Program-made: the position numbers and the translations under genes
NCBI GenBank assembly: GCA_040752005.1
Contig: JBFMFX010000017.1
Span: 10,871 to 74,870, forward strand
Source: Pseudomonadota bacterium
GTDB lineage: Bacteria; Pseudomonadota; Gammaproteobacteria; Burkholderiales; SG8-39
Length of the DNA: 64,000 bases
Direction: 5' to 3'
Shown: positions 6,450-39,397 of the stretch, in pieces
How positions within the stretch are numbered: the stretch's first letter is position 1
How the letters are laid out: each line of letters begins with the position of its first letter
Notes under the pieces: model-generated
Told to the model about the DNA's origin: nothing
The model's input: only the letters and a program-made list of their open reading frames with translations
The model's database searches: none

Positions 6450-7519
6450 CAGCGTAACCGGGCGATGAGGCGCAGATCCCCGCCCACGCGCTCGACCGAG
6501 TGGATGCGCAGCCGAATCCGTTCGTCGAGCAAGGCAACCGCCGGCAGTTCCACCATGCCCTGCGCGGCATCGCCGAGCAGGCTCGGATTGAGGTAGATCA
6601 GGAACTCGTCCACGCAGCCTTCGCGCACGAGCGAGCCGTTGAGGCGAAACCCCGCCTCGACGTGCAGCTCGTTGACCCCGCGGCGCGCAAGCTCCTCCAG
6701 CATCGCCGGCAGCTCGACCTTGCCGCGTGCGTTCGGCAGCACCACCACGTCCGCGTTCGGCGGTGTCCTCCCTCCCTGGGCTGCGAAGATCAGCACGCGC
6801 TCGCCGGCGAGGATGCGCGCCGAATCGGGAATCTCCAGCCGGCTGTCCACCACCACGCGCAGCGGCTGGCGCGGCGTGTCCACCGCGCGCACCGTAAGCT
6901 GGGGATCGTCGGCCTTGACCGTGCCGATGCCGGTGAGCAGCGCGCAGGCGCGCGCGCGCCAGCGGTGGCCGTCGGCGCGCGCCTCCGGCCCGGTGATCCA
7001 GCGGCTGCGGCCGTCGGCGAGCGCGGTGCGGCCGTCCAGCGTCGCGGCGATCTTCATGCGCACCCACGGGCGGCCGCGCGTCATGCGCGAAAAAAAACCG
7101 ATGTTCAGCTCGCGCGCCGCCTCCTCGAGCAGGCCGAACTCGACGCGCACGCCGGCCGCGGCGAGCGCCTCGCCGCCGCGGCGCGCCAGCGGATTCGGGT
7201 CGCGCACCGCCGCCACCACGCGCGCGATGCCGGCGCGCGCGAGCGCCTCGGCGCAGGGGGGTGTCCTGCCGTAATGGTTGCACGGCTCCAGCGTCACGTA
7301 CGCCGTCGCGCCCCTCGCCGCGCCTCCGGCCGCGGCAAGCGCGTTCGCCTCGGCATGCGGCGCGCCGGCCTGCTCGTGCCAGCCTTCGCCGACGATGCGG
7401 TTGCCTTGCGCGATCACGCAGCCAACGCGCGGGTTGGGCGTCGCGGTGTACAAGCCCCGCTCGGCGAGCGCGAGCGCGCGCGCCATCATCGCCCGGTCGA
7501 GGCCGGAGAAGCCGCTCAC
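6449..7519 (-). CDS. ribD: Bifunctional diaminohydroxyphosphoribosylaminopyrimidine deaminase / 5-amino-6-(5-phosphoribosylamino)uracil reductase RibD
   Basis: [25 protein letters not shown]...HAE...[14 protein letters not shown] is the CDA zinc motif, followed by a reductase domain. The start is either GTG 7519 (GTGA overlap with the nrdR stop) or ATG 7489. Confidence 0.9.
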
Positions 7520-32138: not shown

Positions 32139-32792
32139 GTGCTGGCGACGATCGAGGTCGAAACCGGCGCGCGCCCCGACGCCGCCGTCATCTGGATGCA
32201 TGGCCTGGGCGCCGACGGTCATGACTTCGAGCCGGTCGTGCCCGAGCTGCGCCTGCCGCAGGGGCTGCGCGTGCGCTTCGTGTTTCCCCACGCGCCCATC
32301 CGCCCGGTGACGATCAACGCCGGCATGCGCATGCGGGCGTGGTACGACGTCTTCCAGCTTGGCGGCGGTGCCGAAGACGAAGCCGGCATCCGCGCCTCGC
32401 AGGCCGAGGTGGAGAAACTGATCGAGCGCGAGACGCAACGCGGCGTCCGGCCCGGCCGGATCGTGCTCGCCGGCTTCTCTCAGGGCGGGGCGATGGCGCT
32501 GCATACCGGCCTGCGCCATCCGGAACCGCTCGCCGGAATCGTTGCGCTTTCGACCTGGCTGCCGCTCGCGGCGAGGCTGCCGGCCGAGCGCCACGCGGCG
32601 AACGCCGCCGCGCCGATCTTCATGGCGCACGGCACGGAAGATCCCATGGTGCCGCTCGCGCTCGCGCAGGCCTCGCGCGCGGCGCTGGAGCGTCTGGGGT
32701 ACGCCGTCGAGTGGCATCAGTACCCGATGCCCCATTCGGTCTGCGGCGAGGAAATCGCCGATATCGCCGCGTTCCTCGTCAGGATTCTCTGA
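32139..32792 (+). CDS. Phospholipase/carboxylesterase-family alpha/beta hydrolase
   Basis: VIWMHGLGADGHDF, GFSQGGAM (nucleophile elbow) and HGTEDPMVP...MPHS are present. Confidence 0.85.
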   Translation: MLATIEVETGARPDAAVIWMHGLGADGHDFEPVVPELRLPQGLRVRFVFPHAPIRPVTINAGMRMRAWYDVFQLGGGAEDEAGIRASQAEVEKLIERETQRGVRPGRIVLAGFSQGGAMALHTGLRHPEPLAGIVALSTWLPLAARLPAERHAANAAAPIFMAHGTEDPMVPLALAQASRAALERLGYAVEWHQYPMPHSVCGEEIADIAAFLVRIL

Positions 32793-34281
32793 CCATTTCC
32801 CGATAGCGGCCGATGTCGTAGTCCTCGCCGCGCTCGGCGAGGCCCTGCGGGATGTACACGCGCGTGCGCTCGCCTTCCCGCACCTCCAGGTTCTGCAGCG
32901 GCGCGTAGATCCCGGGCTTGAGCAGGATGCGCACCTCTGCCGCGCCGGCGTCGCGCATCAGCACACCCTCCTCGAGCGCGCCGCTCACCTCGAAGCGCCG
33001 CACCTCGGCCGAGCGCGCCAGCGTCTGGATTCCGACGCGCGCCTCGCGCGGGGTGGTCTTGTTCACCCGGCGCACGATCCCGAGCACCCAGTTCGTGCCA
33101 CCTTCTCCCTGAAGCGCGACGAGCGTTCCGACGCGCAGCCAGTCGCCCTTCAACTGCGGCACCACCGCACCGAAGCCCCCGGCGCTCACGTTCTCCACCA
33201 CCCAGCTCTCGGTGCCTTCGGCGCTGGAGCCGAGGCCGCCGGCAGCGCCCATCGCACCGAGTGCGCCCTCGTAGCCGTGCGCGACGAACACGCGCGATTT
33301 GACCGCGTGGCGCTGCGACTTGCGCTCCGGCGGCTGCGGCGACCACGCCCGCACCAGATGACGCAGCACGCCGAGCACCGATTCCGGGTCCACGCCCGTG
33401 ACGGCGGCGAGTTCCGAGGGCACCTGCCCGCGGGTGTACACGCGCTCCACGAGGGCCTCGGCTTCGGCGAGCGCGGCGCCGGCGCCGAACCAGCGTGCGG
33501 CCGGCGCCGCCTGCGCGCCACGGGCGCTGCGCTGCGGAGCCATCGGCCGGGAGAGGTCAATCCACCAGCCGAGCTCCGGGGCGGGCGCGGGCGCGATCGC
33601 GAAGCTCGGAGCGAAGTGTGCGATGAGGCGCTCGGCGAGGTCGGCCTCGGCCGGCAGCAGGCAATCGGGGCTCGCCGCGCTGAACATCGCACCCTTGAGA
33701 AATTCAAGCTGCGGCGAGGATTCGCCCGGCACGCCCGGATAGGCCGGCACGCGCGCCTGCGCGAGCTGGCGCGCCTCTGCAAAGGCGTACACACCGTTGA
33801 ACACCGCCCAGACGGCCGGATCAATCGGGCCATAGCGCAGGTGCATCCACTTGATCTGCTGCGCAAGGCTCCTCAGGGTCCGCACGAGGAGCGCCGGAAG
33901 CGAGGCGCGCGCCTGCTCGGCGCCCTTGGCGCCCTGCACGAACAGATCCACGGCTTTCGCCAGCGACAGGCCCGCCTGCCGGTAATAGCCGTGCACCGCG
34001 CTCCAGAGCCGGTTCTCCTGAAAGCGGGACGGCCGCTCCGCGGCAAAGTAGTCTCGGGCGAGTCTGCGCAGGCGCGGCTGCGCCGCCTCGTCTACCGCGA
34101 AGAGCGCCTGAATGCGGGCTTCGGGACGGAACTGTCCGGCGGCCGTCACCGACTCCAGCCAGTGCGTCAGCTCCTCCAGCGCCTTGAATGGGTCCTGAGC
34201 CGGAAGCTCGCCGAGGATCCGGCGCGCCTCCTTCGGATCGGCGAGGGGATGGTCGGGCTTGCCGCCAAACAGACGAAGCAT
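32779..34281 (-). CDS. PilZ-domain protein with a large uncharacterised N-terminal region
   Basis: The C-terminus carries RKSQR ... ENVSAGGFG, which fits RxxxR / (D/N)xSxxG. The start is set at MLRLFGGKP with GGAGG 5 nt upstream. Confidence 0.7.
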   Translation of the reverse strand: MLRLFGGKPDHPLADPKEARRILGELPAQDPFKALEELTHWLESVTAAGQFRPEARIQALFAVDEAAQPRLRRLARDYFAAERPSRFQENRLWSAVHGYYRQAGLSLAKAVDLFVQGAKGAEQARASLPALLVRTLRSLAQQIKWMHLRYGPIDPAVWAVFNGVYAFAEARQLAQARVPAYPGVPGESSPQLEFLKGAMFSAASPDCLLPAEADLAERLIAHFAPSFAIAPAPAPELGWWIDLSRPMAPQRSARGAQAAPAARWFGAGAALAEAEALVERVYTRGQVPSELAAVTGVDPESVLGVLRHLVRAWSPQPPERKSQRHAVKSRVFVAHGYEGALGAMGAAGGLGSSAEGTESWVVENVSAGGFGAVVPQLKGDWLRVGTLVALQGEGGTNWVLGIVRRVNKTTPREARVGIQTLARSAEVRRFEVSGALEEGVLMRDAGAAEVRILLKPGIYAPLQNLEVREGERTRVYIPQGLAERGEDYDIGRYREMVRES

Positions 34282-34313
34282 TGCCTCCGCTCCTCGTGGA
34301 GCCGCATCATGCA

Positions 34314-35627
34314 ATGTCCGGCAGGCTTTATCAATCCGTCCGGCCCCGGCACAATTCGGCGAGCGTCGTGGAGCCCCTGCGCTTTCTGATCGTGAGCGAT
34401 TCGCGCGACGAATGCGCCGCGCTCGCGCGCATGCTCGCGGCGCGCTGGCCGCAGGCCGCGATCGAGCACTGGGCGCCGATCGAGCGCGGCGGGTTGCCGG
34501 GCGATCGGCTCGCAGGCTGGAGCGCCATCCTGCTCGACGCGGGTCCGGGGCGGGAGGCGCCGCTCGCGTGGCTTTCGCGCCTGCGCCAGACCGCCGATCC
34601 CCCGCCGGTGCTCTTGCTCACCGCGCCCGGCAGCGAGATCGGGGCCGAGCAGGCGAGCCGAGCTGGGGTGGCGGACCTCCTCCACTGGGCAGGGCTCGAA
34701 CCGCGGCAGCTCGCGCGCGCCGTCGGGGACGCGCTTGCCGAGCGCGAGGCGCGGCGCGCCGAGCAGACGGGCGCCGACCCGCCGTGGCTTCGCACGACGC
34801 GCTGGGAACCGGCACGCATCGGCGCGCCGCTCGACGACGCTGCGCGCGAAGTGCCCGGCTACCGCCTGTTGCGCAAGATCGGCGAGGGCGGAATGGGGCA
34901 GGTGTATCTTGCCGAGCGCGTGCACGACGGCCTGCAATTGGTGCTCAAGCTGCTCGGGCCCGCGCTGCGCGGCGATCCCGTCTTCCTGCAGAGGTTCGTG
35001 CGCGAGTACAAACTGATCGCGGCAATCGCCGACGAGCATGTGGCGCGCATCTACGACCAGGGCTTCGCCGGCGTGCAGCCCTACCTCGCCATGGAGTTTC
35101 TTGCCGGCGGCACGCTCGCGGCGCGCATCCATGAGGGCATGACTTCGCTCGCGGCGCTGCGGCTCGCCGGCGGAATCGCGCGCGCGCTGGACGCGATCCA
35201 CCGGCACGGCATCGTGCATCGCGACCTCAAGCCCCAGAACATCATGTTCCGGGCCGGCGGCGCGCGTCCGGTGATCGTGGATTTCGGGCTGGCGCGCGAG
35301 CTCCACGGCGACTCGACGCTCACGCGGCACGGGCCGCTGCTCGCCACGCCGCGCTACATGAGCCCGGAGCAGTGCCTCGGCGAGCCGGTGGACGCGCGCT
35401 CCGACCTCTACAGCCTCGGCGTCATCTTCTACGAAATGCTGACCGGCCAGAAGCTGTTCGGGGACGCCTCCCCGGCCGACCTGATGCTCGCGCACGTGCG
35501 CGGCGAGGTGCCGCGGCTGCCGCCGCGCCTTGCCGGCTACCAGCCGGTGCTCGATCGCCTGCTCGCCAGGGATCCCGAGCGGCGGTTCCAGAGCGCACGC
35601 GAGCTTTTCGCTACCATCGCGATATGA
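34314..35627 (+). CDS. Hanks-type Ser/Thr protein kinase with N-terminal receiver-like domain
   Basis: [28 protein letters not shown] and SPE motifs are present. The N-terminus (LRFLIVSD...AILLDAG...VLLLTAPG) is REC-like. The start is uncertain: ATG 34314 or GTG at about 34369. Confidence 0.85.
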
Positions 35628-36436
35628 GCGCCAACCGCGAAGAGCAGCAGTACCTGGACCTGCTCGCCGAGGTGATGGCGAGCGGCGCGCGCAAGCCCGA
35701 CCGCACCGGCACCGGCACGCTGTCGGTGTTCGGCCGGCAGATGCGCTTCGGCCTCGACGGGCGCTTTCCGCTGCTCACCACGAAGAAGCTGCATTTCAAG
35801 TCCATCGCGTACGAGCTGCTGTGGTTCCTGCGCGGCGACACCAACGTGCGCTGGCTGCAGGAGCGCGGGGTCACGATCTGGGACGAATGGGCGGACGCGA
35901 ACGGCGAGCTGGGGCCGGTCTACGGCTACCAGTGGCGCCACTGGCGCACCCCCGACGGGCGCGAGATTGACCAGATCCGCGACGTCGTCGAGGCGATCCG
36001 GCGCGACCCGCATTCGCGTCGCCACGTCGTCTCGGCCTGGAACCCGGCCGACATCGGCCGCATGGCGCTGCCGCCGTGCCATGCGCTGTTCCAGTTCTAC
36101 GCCGCCGAGGGGCGACTGTCCTGCCAGATGTACCAGAGGAGCGCAGACCTGTTTCTCGGCGTGCCGTTCAACATCGCCTCCTATGCCTTGCTCACCCTGA
36201 TGGTCGCGCAGGTCACCAGCCTTGCTGCGGGCGAGTTCATTCTGACGCTGGGCGACGCGCACCTGTACCTCAACCACCTCGAGCAGGCGCGCGAGCAGCT
36301 CACGCGCGCGCCGCGCCCGTTTCCGCGCATGCGGCTGAACCCGGAGGTGCGCGACCTGTTCGCCTTCCGCTACGAGGACTTCACGCTCGAAGGCTACGAC
36401 CCGCACCCGGCGATCCGGGCGCCGATCGCGGTCTGA
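35624..36436 (+). CDS. thyA: Thymidylate synthase
   Basis: [23 protein letters not shown] (catalytic Cys) and DAHLYLNH are present. The ATG overlaps the kinase stop (ATGA). Confidence 0.97.
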
Positions 36437-36439
36437 GCG

Positions 36440-37450
36440 CTATGGGCGGCGGGGCTCCGCGGACGCCGTCCTCCCCGCCGGGCGCGGCTTGAACGTCGCC
36501 GGCGCGAGCGCGTGGCGCGCGAGCAGCCGATAGAACTCGGTGCGGTTGCGCCCGGCCAGGCGCGCGGCGCGAGTGACGTTGCCGGAGGTGATCCTCAGCA
36601 CACGCTCGAGGTAGTCGCGCTCGAAGGCGCGGCGCGCCTCGTCGAGCGGGACGAACCGGGGCGCCGCGCCGAGCGCCTCCTCCACCATCGCGCGCGTGAT
36701 CGGACCGGCGGCGGCCATCGCCACGAGCTGCTCGACGAACGCGAACAGCTGGCGCACGTTGCCCGGCCAAGACGCGGCGATCAGCGGCTCGAGCGCATCG
36801 TCGCCGATCTCCGGTCGCGCACCCCGGTACCGTGCGCCGAGCCGCGCAAGCGCGTGCGCGACGAGCAGCGGGATGTCTTCGCGCCGCTCGTCAAGCGGCG
36901 GAACGACGAGCCGGATCACTCCGAGGCGGAAGAAAAGATCCTCGCGAAAGGCGCCGGCGGCGACCCGCTCCTCGAGCGGCTCGCGCGTGCCGGCGATGAG
37001 ACGCGCGCCGCCGGGCCCCGGCGCGCGCTCTTCGAGCGCCTCCAGCAGGCCTGCCTGCAGTGGCGGCGAAAGCTCGCTCACGCCATCGAGATAGAGCGTG
37101 CCCCCGGTCGCGGCCGGCGCCGACGCGGGCCGCGCCTCGCCCTCGCCCGGCGATCCGAGCATCGCCCGCCGGATCTCCGCCTCCACGGCCTGCGAGCAGC
37201 GCGTGACGACGAAGGGGCCCGCCGCGCGAGGGCTCGCGCGATGGATCGCGCGCGCCACGGTCTTCTTGCCGGCGCCGGCCGGGCCGACGATGCACACCGC
37301 GGTATCCGAGGCGGCGGCGCGCCGCGCCTGCGCCAGCACCGTCTCCATCGCTTGCGAGCGCGCCACGATGTGCGCGCGCCACGAGGCCGCTTCGCTCTGC
37401 GGCTCGTCTGCGACGCGCGCCGCTTCGGTCAGGTTGGAGATCGAGACCAT
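36440..37450 (-). CDS. Sigma-54-activator-like AAA+ transcriptional regulator, degenerate (no GAFTGA, Walker B Glu replaced)
   Basis: GPAGAGKK, GGTLYLDGVSEL, FREDLFFRL, WPGNVRQL and a Fis-type HTH (NVTRAARLAGRNRTEFYRLL) are present. There is no receiver or sensor domain. The start is trimmed to MVSISNL. Confidence 0.8.
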   Translation of the reverse strand: MVSISNLTEAARVADEPQSEAASWRAHIVARSQAMETVLAQARRAAASDTAVCIVGPAGAGKKTVARAIHRASPRAAGPFVVTRCSQAVEAEIRRAMLGSPGEGEARPASAPAATGGTLYLDGVSELSPPLQAGLLEALEERAPGPGGARLIAGTREPLEERVAAGAFREDLFFRLGVIRLVVPPLDERREDIPLLVAHALARLGARYRGARPEIGDDALEPLIAASWPGNVRQLFAFVEQLVAMAAAGPITRAMVEEALGAAPRFVPLDEARRAFERDYLERVLRITSGNVTRAARLAGRNRTEFYRLLARHALAPATFKPRPAGRTASAEPRRP

Positions 37451-37461
37451 CTTCGCCCCTC

Positions 37462-37467
37462 TATAAT
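37462..37467 (+). promoter_or_regulatory. Consensus -10 TATAAT 30 nt upstream of folA
   Basis: The context cTATAATcggcgca is read directly. No convincing -35 was found. Confidence 0.4.
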
Positions 37468-37497
37468 CGGCGCAAAGATCCGTCAGGACCAGGACGT

Positions 37498-38025
37498 ATG
37501 TCACAGAATGCTCGCACCCCGGCGCCGTCGGTCGCCCCGAACGAGCCGCGCATCTACCTGGTCGCCGCGGTGGCGGCGAACGGTGTGATCGGCGCCGGTG
37601 GGCGGATTCCCTGGCATCTGCCGGAGGATCTGAAGCACTTTCGCACGCTCACGCTCGGGCATCCGGTGATCATGGGCCGCCGGACCTGGGAGTCACTCGG
37701 CAAGCCGCTGCCCGGACGCGAAAACATCGTGGTCACGCGCCGGCGCGGCTACGAGGCACCCGGTGCGTGCGTCGCCGCCTCGCTGGAGGCGGCGCTCGCG
37801 CTGTGTCGCGGCGAGCCGGTGGTGTTCGTGATCGGGGGAGCGGAACTCTACGCAGCGGCGTTGCCGCTCGCGCACGGAATGGTGATGACCGAGATCCACC
37901 GCGACTACGAGGGCGACGTCCGGTTCCCGGAGTGGGACCGCACCCGTTGGCGCGAGACTCAGCGAAAGCCGCAGACCAGCGCCGACGGCCTGCGGTTCGA
38001 TTTCGTGCTCTACGAGCGGGTCTAG
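37498..38025 (+). CDS. folA: Dihydrofolate reductase
   Basis: IYLVAAVAANGVIGAGGRIPWHLPEDLKHFRTLTLGHPVIMGRRTWESL is present. Confidence 0.95.
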   Translation: MSQNARTPAPSVAPNEPRIYLVAAVAANGVIGAGGRIPWHLPEDLKHFRTLTLGHPVIMGRRTWESLGKPLPGRENIVVTRRRGYEAPGACVAASLEAALALCRGEPVVFVIGGAELYAAALPLAHGMVMTEIHRDYEGDVRFPEWDRTRWRETQRKPQTSADGLRFDFVLYERV

Positions 38026-39236
38026 CGCGCCTCGCCCTTGGACTCGAAGACGCGGACCTCGGGCAGCGGAAAGCCGTTGAACTCGCTCGCGTACGCCGTC
38101 GTGTAGGCGCCCGCGTTGCGGATGTAGATGAAATCGCCCTCCTGCAGGTCCGAGGGCAGCGGTTCGTCGCGCAGGACCACGTCCACCGAGTCGCAGGTGG
38201 GGCCGGCCACGTTCCACGGCACGTCCGGCCCGGAGCGCTCGCTGCGGATCTTGTACTTGAGCCCCTCGGTGGTTTCGATGATGCCGCCAAAGAGGCCCGC
38301 GTCCCAGTGCATCCAGCGCTTGCCGCCGCGCACTGTGGTGCCAACGACCCGGCAGACGAAGTAGCCGGCGTCGGAGGTCATGTAACGTCCGGGCTCGGCG
38401 ACCACCTGAACGTCGTCGGCAAACGCCTTCAGCGCCTCGTTGACCACCGCCCCGATCACCTCGATCGAGGGAATCGGCTTGACGTGGCGTACCGGGAACC
38501 CTCCCCCGATGTCGAGCATCCGGGGCTTCAGGCCCGCCTTCAGCATGGCGTCGAACACCCCGCGCGCCTTTTCGATGCCGACGCGCCAGTTCTCCGGGTT
38601 GCGGCACTGCGAGCCGACGTGGAACGTCACCCCGGCCAGGTCGGCGCCGAGCTTGGCGGCCGTGGCGATGATTTCGCGGGTCTCGGTCGCCCCGGCGCCG
38701 AACTTGCCCGAAAGCGGCCAGTCGCTGCCGATGTTCGGCGTCGCGATGCGCACGTAGATTCGGGCGTCGGCGCGCGTCTCGTGCACGCGGCGCAGCTCGT
38801 CCACGCTGTCCACCGCGAACCACTGCACGCCCTTGCCGGCGGCGCAGGCGATCGCCGCACGCGATTTCATCGGGTTGGAAAACAGGATCTCCTCGGCCGG
38901 AACGCCCAGCGCGAGCAGCAGCTCCAGCTCCGCGGTCGAGGCGATTTCAAAGCCGCAGCCTTCCTGGGCGAGCACCTTGAGCACGCGCCGGTCGGGATTC
39001 GCTTTCACCGCATAGTGCGGCCGCACGCGCGGCATGGCGGCGCGGAACCGGCGCACCTTCTGGCGCACGATGGCGGTGTCGAGGATCAGAAACGGCCGCG
39101 TGTAGCGTTGCCGGGCGGCCTGGCGCACGATCTCGAAGTCGAGACTCGCTTCGGGATGCGTGTCGAAGAGCTGTTCTTGCGGTTGCGGGTTCTGTCTGCT
39201 GTTGCGCGCGATGCTACTCGGAGGGCGAGCGCCCAT
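38022..39236 (-). CDS. Fold-type-III PLP decarboxylase (ornithine/lysine/arginine decarboxylase family 2; eukaryotic-ODC-like)
   Basis: HYAVKANP (PLP lysine), DIGGGFP, EPGRY and GPTCDSVD motifs are present. SD AAGGAG lies 9 nt upstream of ATG 39236. Confidence 0.88.
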   Translation of the reverse strand: MGARPPSSIARNSRQNPQPQEQLFDTHPEASLDFEIVRQAARQRYTRPFLILDTAIVRQKVRRFRAAMPRVRPHYAVKANPDRRVLKVLAQEGCGFEIASTAELELLLALGVPAEEILFSNPMKSRAAIACAAGKGVQWFAVDSVDELRRVHETRADARIYVRIATPNIGSDWPLSGKFGAGATETREIIATAAKLGADLAGVTFHVGSQCRNPENWRVGIEKARGVFDAMLKAGLKPRMLDIGGGFPVRHVKPIPSIEVIGAVVNEALKAFADDVQVVAEPGRYMTSDAGYFVCRVVGTTVRGGKRWMHWDAGLFGGIIETTEGLKYKIRSERSGPDVPWNVAGPTCDSVDVVLRDEPLPSDLQEGDFIYIRNAGAYTTAYASEFNGFPLPEVRVFESKGEAR

Positions 39237-39369: not shown

Positions 39370-39397
39370 ATTATAGGTACGACCCCCTCGCTGTCAA
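39370..39397 (-). promoter_or_regulatory. Near-consensus sigma-70 promoter TTGACA-16 nt-TATAAT driving the decarboxylase
   Basis: Minus strand reads TTGACAgcgagggggtcgtaccTATAAT. The -35 is at 39397-39392 and the -10 at 39375-39370. Confidence 0.6.

Follow-up and report, generated by a model that had tools for sequence, protein, structure and literature searches.

Gene X lies on the minus strand at positions 36440–37450 of a 64,000-nucleotide stretch of contig JBFMFX010000017.1 (assembly GCA_040752005.1, a Pseudomonadota bacterium placed in the Burkholderiales), hereafter called the window. It encodes a 336-residue homologue of the bacterial enhancer-binding proteins (bEBPs, or EBPs) and stands between the thymidylate synthase gene thyA and the dihydrofolate reductase gene folA. 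X is probably the orphaned remnant of a two-component module of the QseF/GlrR type and persists as a sigma-54-independent, ATP-binding and DNA-binding protein. The evidence comes from the residues that X has lost and kept, and from the complete module that its relatives carry in the same chromosomal slot.

Domains of X and residues lost and kept

According to Pfam, X carries Sigma54_activat (PF00158) at residues 28–181 (E = 2.6e-28; 99 bits with a cut-off of 20.2, as against 235–237 bits in intact relatives), AAA_lid_14 at residues 188–261 and the helix-turn-helix (HTH) domain HTH_8 at residues 273–309, the last at 23.2 bits and barely over its cut-off of 22. No receiver (REC) or any other N-terminal domain was found in X with Pfam. 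The AAA+ domain is preceded by about 27 poorly conserved residues, and a signal-input domain of the REC, ACT/PAS or GAF kind is absent. The top NCBIfam match is GlrR with 259.7 bits, under the equivalog cut-off of 763. Translation starts at an ATG with GAGGGG-N5 ahead of it. A longer reading of 354 residues from a GTG at 37504, which would overlap folA, was rejected, because in-frame stops lie upstream in the related loci L004 and L091 and because the ATG with its GAGGGG is the conserved start.

X was aligned to the structures of ZraR, NtrX and NifA with HMMER and to 8 intact homologues with MAFFT (alignment A1). The features of the gene are as follows.

36440–37450, minus strand: coding sequence of X, 336 residues, an AAA+/HTH protein without REC and without GAFTGA (open reading frame list, Pfam/NCBIfam, alignment A1, orthologues in the same slot)
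36524–36634, minus strand: Fis-type HTH, residues 273–309 (HTH_8; invariant columns in A1; dN/dS, or omega, 0.12–0.31)
36908–37369, minus strand: degenerate AAA+ core, residues 28–181 (PF00158, 99 bits; AAA+ fold kept in the AlphaFold2 model)
37004–37030, minus strand: former L2/pre-sensor-I insertion, residues 141–149, 8 residues shorter
37082–37096, minus strand: Walker B, LYLDG, residues 119–123, Gly in place of the catalytic Glu
37103–37162, minus strand: former L1 loop, residues 97–116, where a 5-residue deletion takes GAFTGA (predicted local distance difference test score, pLDDT, below 50 at residues 100–115)
37262–37285, minus strand: Walker A, within the AAA+ core

In bEBPs, the L1 and L2 loops contact sigma-54, and the Walker B glutamate together with the Glu-switch asparagine is required for ATP hydrolysis. 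All of these are gone from X. The motif GH-x-KG-x-FTGA of the L1 loop has become GSP-----GE through a 5-residue deletion present in all six members of the X clade, and residues 100–115 now form a hypervariable loop rich in Pro and Ala that is predicted to be disordered. Walker B reads LYLDG (D122 and G123) where intact proteins have LFLDE; the glycine is found in 6/6 clade members, and in L004 the aspartate is also replaced by glutamate (LYLEG). Relative to ZraR, NifA and the 8 intact homologues, the L2/pre-sensor-I insertion is eight residues shorter, with the gap falling between G148 and A149. The Glu-switch asparagine, which pairs with the Walker B glutamate, is Arg84 in X (VNC to TRC), and Walker A has changed from GKE to GKK.

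The residues that X retains are of a different kind. Walker A keeps G56-x-x-G-x-G-K62 (G56, G59, G61 and K62); sensor I (T155), the arginine fingers R169 and R175 (FREDLFFRL) and the sensor II arginine R233 (WPGNVRQL) are kept as well, and G56, G59, G61, K62, R169, R175 and R233 are invariant in A1. In its recognition helix, X has the same sequence, GRNRTEFYRLL, as the intact relatives, whose genes adjoin TGTC-N10-GACA boxes. The losses thus fall on residues of sigma-54 coupling and hydrolysis and leave the nucleotide-binding residues, the inter-subunit residues and the recognition helix untouched. All indels of X in A1 are in frame. In five other loci (L037, L038, L048, L047 and L077), a regular-expression search also suggested that GAFTGA was absent; these proteins have the variants GAYTGA or GAFTDA, and no loss is involved.

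The initial annotation, made from the nucleotide sequence alone, had described a 336-residue protein with a bEBP AAA+ core and a Fis-type HTH but no N-terminal sensor or receiver domain, in which the GAFTGA loop was missing, the Walker B glutamate replaced (LDG for LDE) and the segment after Walker B shortened. Pfam and the alignments agree with this description throughout, the shortened segment being the 8-residue L2/pre-sensor-I deletion. With L1/GAFTGA, L2, the Walker B glutamate and the Glu-switch asparagine all gone, its view of X as a degenerate bEBP homologue that should be independent of sigma-54 is also upheld.

Distribution of the short form

The short degenerate form is represented by only five other clusters among 5.8 billion clustered proteins, with identities to X of 94, 82, 79, 79 and 64%. 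The next matches, at about 50–55% identity, are mostly REC-AAA+-HTH proteins named 'GlrR' of about 400–476 residues with GAFTGA intact; a few entries among them are shorter (e.g. P0029, P0055 and P0119). A scan of genome contigs with X gave no short-form member among the matches listed and supplied the intact syntenic relatives described below. Many of its GlrR-like matches are apparently due to a common HTH peptide pattern, GRNRTEFY. A metagenome DNA-pattern scan for the X-specific Walker B region returned the already known L005 contig only.

Every contig with the short form shares the gene order of the window, over 12–17 kb wherever it extends that far. That order is mrp, dcd, ODC> <folA X> <thyA <STK, FimW_N protein, where ODC is the ornithine/DAP-decarboxylase-family gene, STK the Ser/Thr protein kinase gene and the arrowheads give the direction of transcription. 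This arrangement is kept in six lineages that belong to one uncultured Burkholderiales-type lineage, of which the member GCA_026416295.1 is labelled 'Burkholderiales bacterium'. Since the six are collinear, their synteny is one observation and not six.

A complete module in the same slot of relatives

The flanking genes of the window were searched by tblastn against the loci among the matches listed in the genome scan. In many Burkholderiales metagenome-assembled genomes, an intact response regulator (RR) with about 50% identity to X occupies the slot ODC> <folA ... RR> <thyA <STK. In L024, for example, folA and a 41-bp spacer are followed by the genes for a HAMP-HisKA-HATPase kinase (493 residues), a lipobox protein (194 residues, lipobox LLAGC, in the position of QseG) and a REC-AAA+-HTH regulator (464 residues). 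In the intact loci, the RR stop codon is followed by one or two palindromes TGTCGCC-N4-GGCGACA, then by an exact or near-exact sigma-54 promoter TGGCAC-N5-TTGC, then by a conserved gene for a predicted membrane protein of about 110 residues without a Pfam family, and finally by thyA; in L022 and L092, a DUF6627 gene comes after the membrane-protein gene. The stretches that hold the membrane-protein gene are L016 4656–5159, L024 7032–7551, L023 1686–2220, L017 7069–7541 and L092 6090–6580, and the predicted product is a protein of 108–112 residues with several transmembrane segments.

Seven intact loci with the same synteny (L016, L023, L026, L028, L031, L033 and L034) have the exact sequence TGGCAC-N5-TTGC 20–220 bp past the RR stop. 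Several enterobacterial loci of the same scan have a sigma-54 promoter upstream of glrK; they provide a positive control, since glmY is known to be arranged in this way. The palindrome TGTCGCC-N4-GGCGACA, with at most 2 mismatches, lies at or near the 3′ end of the RR gene in 13/17 non-degenerate loci (two short but intact and fifteen full-length), and it fits the published GlrR box TGTCN10GACA (PMC3045617). Because relatives carry the kinase, the lipoprotein, the RR, GlrR boxes and a sigma-54 promoter, the predicted ancestral occupant of the slot is a module of the QseE/QseG/QseF (GlrK/YfhG/GlrR) type with its own cis-target. In these Burkholderiales loci, the QseEGF-like module appears to drive the multi-transmembrane gene through GlrR-type boxes and the sigma-54 promoter, so that its local output, a small membrane-protein gene, would differ from that of enterobacterial GlrR, the small RNA glmY.

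In three further loci (L021, L027 and L030, at about 6945–7400), the kinase-lipoprotein-regulator module is complete and the local GlrR box, the sigma-54 promoter and the membrane-protein gene are absent; the next gene encodes a secreted protein with a CSSCPPADRWL motif. Full modules without a local box or target imply that remote targets exist in the family. The identical recognition helix also occurs at a further group of loci (L009, L011, L012, L015, L018 and L019), where the genomic context is a second one and an MlaC-like gene lies downstream.

Deletion scars and probable order of losses

Comparison of X with the intact loci locates two scars.

37395–37470, minus strand: 5′ deletion scar, from nucleotide and amino-acid comparison with L022, L024, L026 and L016
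36437–36439: 3′ deletion scar, the 3 nt left between the stop codons of X and thyA

At the 5′ scar, the conserved promoter region (…TTGCGCCGATTATAG…) is joined to codons that match the last helix of REC, K-V-L-L-D-T-V-A-E-A in the intact proteins corresponding to K-M-V-S-I-S-N-L-T-E-A in X. What is missing there amounts to about 2.1–2.4 kb: the genes for the kinase and the lipoprotein and the greater part of REC. At the 3′ scar, the boxes, the sigma-54 promoter and the ~110-residue gene (plus DUF6627 when compared with L022 and L092) are missing, about 0.5–1.0 kb in all, and the junction of X and thyA, TAGCG(C/T)TCA, is common to 5/6 lineages. None of the missing parts was found elsewhere in the window: the 64 kb hold no TGGCAC-N5-TTGC with at most one mismatch and no gene for the kinase, the lipoprotein, the membrane-protein target or DUF6627, and the GlrR-type box has 6 matches at 3 mismatches (10.7 expected), none of them near X.

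Two loci are intermediate in content. L017 and L092 (the latter with P0029) are without kinase, lipoprotein and REC, but their boxes, sigma-54 promoter and target gene are all still there, and the regulator itself has GAFTGA, L2 and the DE of Walker B. A neighbour-joining tree of the concatenated neighbours ODC, dcd, folA and mrp forms a ladder from L022, which has the full module, through L017 and L092 to the degenerate clade (L004, L001, L005 and window/L088). The common slot shows X, as judged by positional orthology, to descend from the QseF/GlrR-type RR of the syntenic module. In the parsimonious history, which has two steps, loss of the input components would come first; the determinants of sigma-54 coupling and the cis-target would have gone afterwards, in the ancestor of the window's clade. 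In L001 (9044–9427; also in L002 and L003, lineage P0004), a DUF6627 gene overlaps the stop codon of X.

Predicted structure and selection

The AlphaFold2 model of X shows an AAA+ fold, a lid and an HTH, with a pLDDT of 73. Its nearest matches in the PDB are NtrX (the top one, which is also without GAFTGA), FlrC and ZraR.

Omega was obtained from Nei-Gojobori estimates with codon bootstraps. For the whole of X it is 0.33–0.43, with upper 95% bounds of at most 0.63, and it is significantly below 1 in all deep pairs, at dS up to ~0.7. The AAA+ domain gives 0.2–0.5 and the HTH 0.12–0.31. The corresponding values are 0.06–0.23 for thyA, folA and ODC, and 0.01–0.12 for intact regulators at similar dS. 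From omega, the in-frame indels, the selective loss and retention of residues and the predicted fold taken together, we infer that X is under relaxed yet real purifying selection.

The spacer between X and folA

X is convergent with thyA and divergent from folA. The stop codon of X (36440–36442) is 3 nt from that of thyA (36436), and its start (37450) is 47 bp from that of folA (37498). The initial annotation had given the same antiparallel geometry, including a TATAAT in the spacer, and its coordinates agree with ours.

35624–36436, plus strand: thyA (Pfam Thymidylat_synt, E = 3.7e-122), a neighbour not shown to belong to the system
37451–37497: divergent spacer of folA and X, 47 bp, with TATAAT at 37462–37467 (plus strand) and the X Shine-Dalgarno sequence GAGGGG (minus strand); conserved in X-clade loci, L022 and L024
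37498–38025, plus strand: folA (Pfam DHFR_1, E = 2e-56), a neighbour not shown to belong to the system

TATAAT occurs 2 times in the 64 kb (0.54 expected). A sigma-70 promoter scan of 36200–37800 gave zero matches, and the TATAAT has no acceptable -35 partner at 16–18 bp. An Rfam scan of 34–40 kb found nothing, so no riboswitch or small RNA accounts for the locus. The core of the spacer, including GATTATA/TATAAT, is the same in L022 and L024, where the histidine-kinase gene comes next after spacers of 41–44 bp. The 47-bp spacer is in all likelihood the ancestral promoter region of folA and of the kinase operon. In L092 (4808–5000), the spacer between folA and the regulator is 193 bp long and has two GATTAT(A/G) copies; the promoter region may have been duplicated there when the kinase and the REC region went.

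A search around the spacer for GlrR-type boxes, relaxed GTCG-N8-CGAC palindromes and inverted repeats found nothing above chance. One candidate operator in the spacer, CGTC-N8-GACG, was rejected for three reasons: the ribosome-binding site of folA, with its AGGAC repeats, overlaps it; it is not spaced as the family box is; and at this place L022 and L024 have no palindrome.

From the position of X, the initial annotation had proposed a regulator of the dTMP/folate-cycle genes and had suggested a survey of the thyA-X-folA order in relatives. Neither the survey nor the spacer bears this proposal out: intact relatives hold the complete module in the slot, the spacer is equally conserved where the kinase gene follows it, and no operator repeat is present. 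Because a complete ancestral module filled the slot, the position of X is best read as a historical leftover, not as evidence for control of folA or thyA; it is, as far as the loci compared indicate, inherited and offers no functional evidence.

Comparison with known systems

GlrR/QseF, which works with GlrK/QseE and QseG in the Enterobacteriaceae, represents the parent family of X, with 42–47% identity over AAA+ and HTH. The intact syntenic relatives resemble the GlrR system in the order of kinase, lipoprotein and regulator and in the TGTC-N10-GACA boxes upstream of a sigma-54 promoter. In contrast to GlrR/QseF, X lacks REC, the kinase and lipoprotein partners, GAFTGA, the L2 loop and the Walker B glutamate.

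Atypical, sigma-54-independent EBPs have been documented, namely TyrR, PhhR, HupR, NtrX, VpsR, DhaR and the Rhodobacter/Caulobacter NtrC. NtrX of Brucella abortus (PDB 5M7N/O/P), the best structural match, resembles X in its shortened L1 without GAFTGA and is described as an atypical EBP that acts as a repressor. Unlike X, it keeps REC, its kinase NtrY and the DE of Walker B (LYLDE), and it represents an independent, Alphaproteobacteria-specific lineage. TyrR of E. coli and PhhR are likewise EBP homologues without GAFTGA and work with sigma-70. TyrR differs from X in having N-terminal ACT/PAS ligand-binding domains and TyrR boxes, and it is related to GlrR solely through the AAA+ family; neither a box nor a ligand domain is present at X. 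VpsR (Vibrio cholerae), HupR and the Rhodobacter/Caulobacter NtrC are atypical EBPs with L1 deletions, and VpsR shares with X a non-consensus Walker B. These proteins act at sigma-70 promoters, some of them by ATP binding without hydrolysis. Different from X, they have kept REC and signal input, and X is also without L2. PspF has the AAA+ and HTH architecture of X with no N-terminal regulatory domain; however, its GAFTGA, Walker B and L2 are intact, and it functions as a genuine sigma-54 activator, under the control of PspA in trans.

With its EBP-type AAA+ domain and deleted GAFTGA loop, X is by sequence an atypical EBP. EBP homologues without GAFTGA are a known polyphyletic kind, to which X is a QseF-derived addition. 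It is unusual among them in its predicted architecture, which has no input domain at all and has lost L2 and the Walker B glutamate besides.

What X may do and alternative explanations

Without L1, L2 and the catalytic glutamate, X should be unable to engage or remodel the sigma-54 holoenzyme or to hydrolyse ATP efficiently. The E108 variants of PspF and the E239 variants of NtrC1 bind ATP and do not turn it over. By analogy with established bEBP biochemistry, X would at most bind nucleotide and oligomerise. Because the Walker A lysine, the arginine fingers, sensor II and the recognition helix are kept, we regard X as a probable ATP-binding, non-hydrolysing, DNA-binding protein. In the mechanism that we propose, X would persist in this form without any input, with the former promoter of the kinase operon driving its expression. 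Its sites would be GlrR-type TGTC-N10-GACA boxes at other places in the genome, where it might, like NtrX or TyrR, repress transcription or serve as a sigma-70-type factor, in either case independently of sigma-54.

Several observations weigh against this proposal or against the history on which it draws. About 130 kb of X-clade DNA contain no GlrR-type box at up to 2 mismatches. The confidence of the AlphaFold2 model is merely moderate and is low at the arginine-finger helix (168–175). The pair of the window and L088 has an omega of 0.64 (0.87 for the AAA+ domain, where substitutions are few), and decay of X may still be going on. As to the history, the 5′ junction sequences differ among the X clade, L017 and L092, so input loss may have occurred more than once, and a single stepwise loss is parsimonious, not proven. 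The DUF6627 gene of L001 conflicts with the simplest deletion history and with the neighbour-gene tree, because L004, the outgroup of the clade, and the window have no DUF6627 and share the same 3-nt junction of X and thyA; this pattern suggests parallel deletions or recombination. Finally, the present function of X is purely inferred. The rate of evolution counts on the same side: omega of X is 3–6 times that of intact homologues, its dN is about 3 times as high as in thyA and folA, and its branch is long.

The last of these observations could mean that X has no function and is a slowly decaying fragment, whose frame has stayed open through the short time elapsed and the rarity of stop codons at 70% G+C. 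The ancestral partners (kinase, lipoprotein, REC, boxes, sigma-54 promoter and target) are all gone, four catalytic or coupling determinants are lost, and the family is rare. Nevertheless, we consider this unlikely. A fragment in free decay would not be expected to hold omega below 1 in every deep pair, with an upper confidence limit of at most 0.63 at dS to ~0.7, to acquire in-frame indels only, or to maintain its Shine-Dalgarno sequence and start codon. Moreover, the losses are non-random: the HTH hardly varies, and residues of nucleotide binding and of the arginine fingers are kept while the sigma-54-specific ones are lost.

A role at the neighbouring genes is quite improbable. X would then, independently of sigma-54, control transcription of folA by way of the 47-bp promoter region that the two divergent genes share, that of thyA, or both, and its ATP binding would provide a link to the dTMP/folate cycle. 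The divergent spacer does contain one of the two TATAAT of the 64 kb, the arrangement is maintained in six lineages, and there is a precedent in E. coli, where TyrR, itself without GAFTGA, is a regulator of folA (Yang et al. 2007, as cited in PMC8355897). Given that citation, the opinion of the initial annotation that such a regulator had not been described does not hold. Yet the spacer is equally conserved when the kinase gene, and not X, comes next, it contains neither a GlrR-type box nor another inverted repeat, and the synteny, a single observation, was inherited from a module whose demonstrable cis-target was another, now deleted gene. The unchanged recognition helix gives no hint that X has acquired a new DNA specificity. 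It is more doubtful still that X, once deprived of kinase, receiver, sigma-54 coupling and first target, has been domesticated as a constitutive, ATP-sensing and non-hydrolysing regulator of the sigma-70 type, with a regulon that includes folA and perhaps the convergent thyA; if this were true, it would be a natural case of a bEBP switching its sigma-factor class and a link to one-carbon/dTMP metabolism.

It is also conceivable, with very little likelihood, that X, with its HTH and oligomerisation surface unchanged and its sigma-54 contact gone, is an anti-activator which competes for GlrR-type boxes or poisons the rings of a paralogous intact bEBP from another part of the genome. Mutants of bEBPs in Walker B and L1 are classical dominant negatives, X shares its recognition helix exactly with intact paralogues and orthologues, those in the MlaC-like context among them, and the intact modules without a local target (L021, L027 and L030) indicate that remote boxes exist. 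On the other hand, no paralogue is visible in the 64-kb window, and nothing separates this model from simple repression.

Other genes at the locus

A Ser/Thr protein kinase gene (34188–35627, plus strand) ends in a 4-nt overlap (ATGA) with the start of thyA. The N-terminal ~130 residues of its product look like a receiver, and the orthologue in L092 has a recorded Pfam Response_reg domain. Because of this overlap, thyA is probably co-transcribed and translationally coupled with the REC-Ser/Thr kinase gene. Next to this pair, and in all related loci, lies an open reading frame of 511 residues (32779–34314, minus strand in the window) with no Pfam match, whose orthologues are recorded with PF27104 (FimW_N). 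On the other side of X, the ornithine/DAP-decarboxylase-family gene (38022–39236, minus strand) is convergent to folA, with a 4-nt overlap at the folA stop, and the second TATAAT of the window (39370–39375, minus strand) is ~135 nt upstream of it.

Significance

Automatic annotation names X a 'sigma-54-interacting regulator' or 'response regulator GlrR', and it can be neither. For the regulation of folate or thymidylate genes the locus opens no new path; what makes it interesting is the degradation series. This natural series comprises four states, which run from the complete QseEGF-like module through an activator that is intact but has no input, and a sigma-54-dead orphan accompanied by DUF6627, to the orphan by itself. 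It shows in what sequence a two-component module of the sigma-54 type comes apart and which residues of the AAA+ domain are still constrained after sigma-54 coupling has been lost, which bears on the origin of sigma-70-dependent EBPs.

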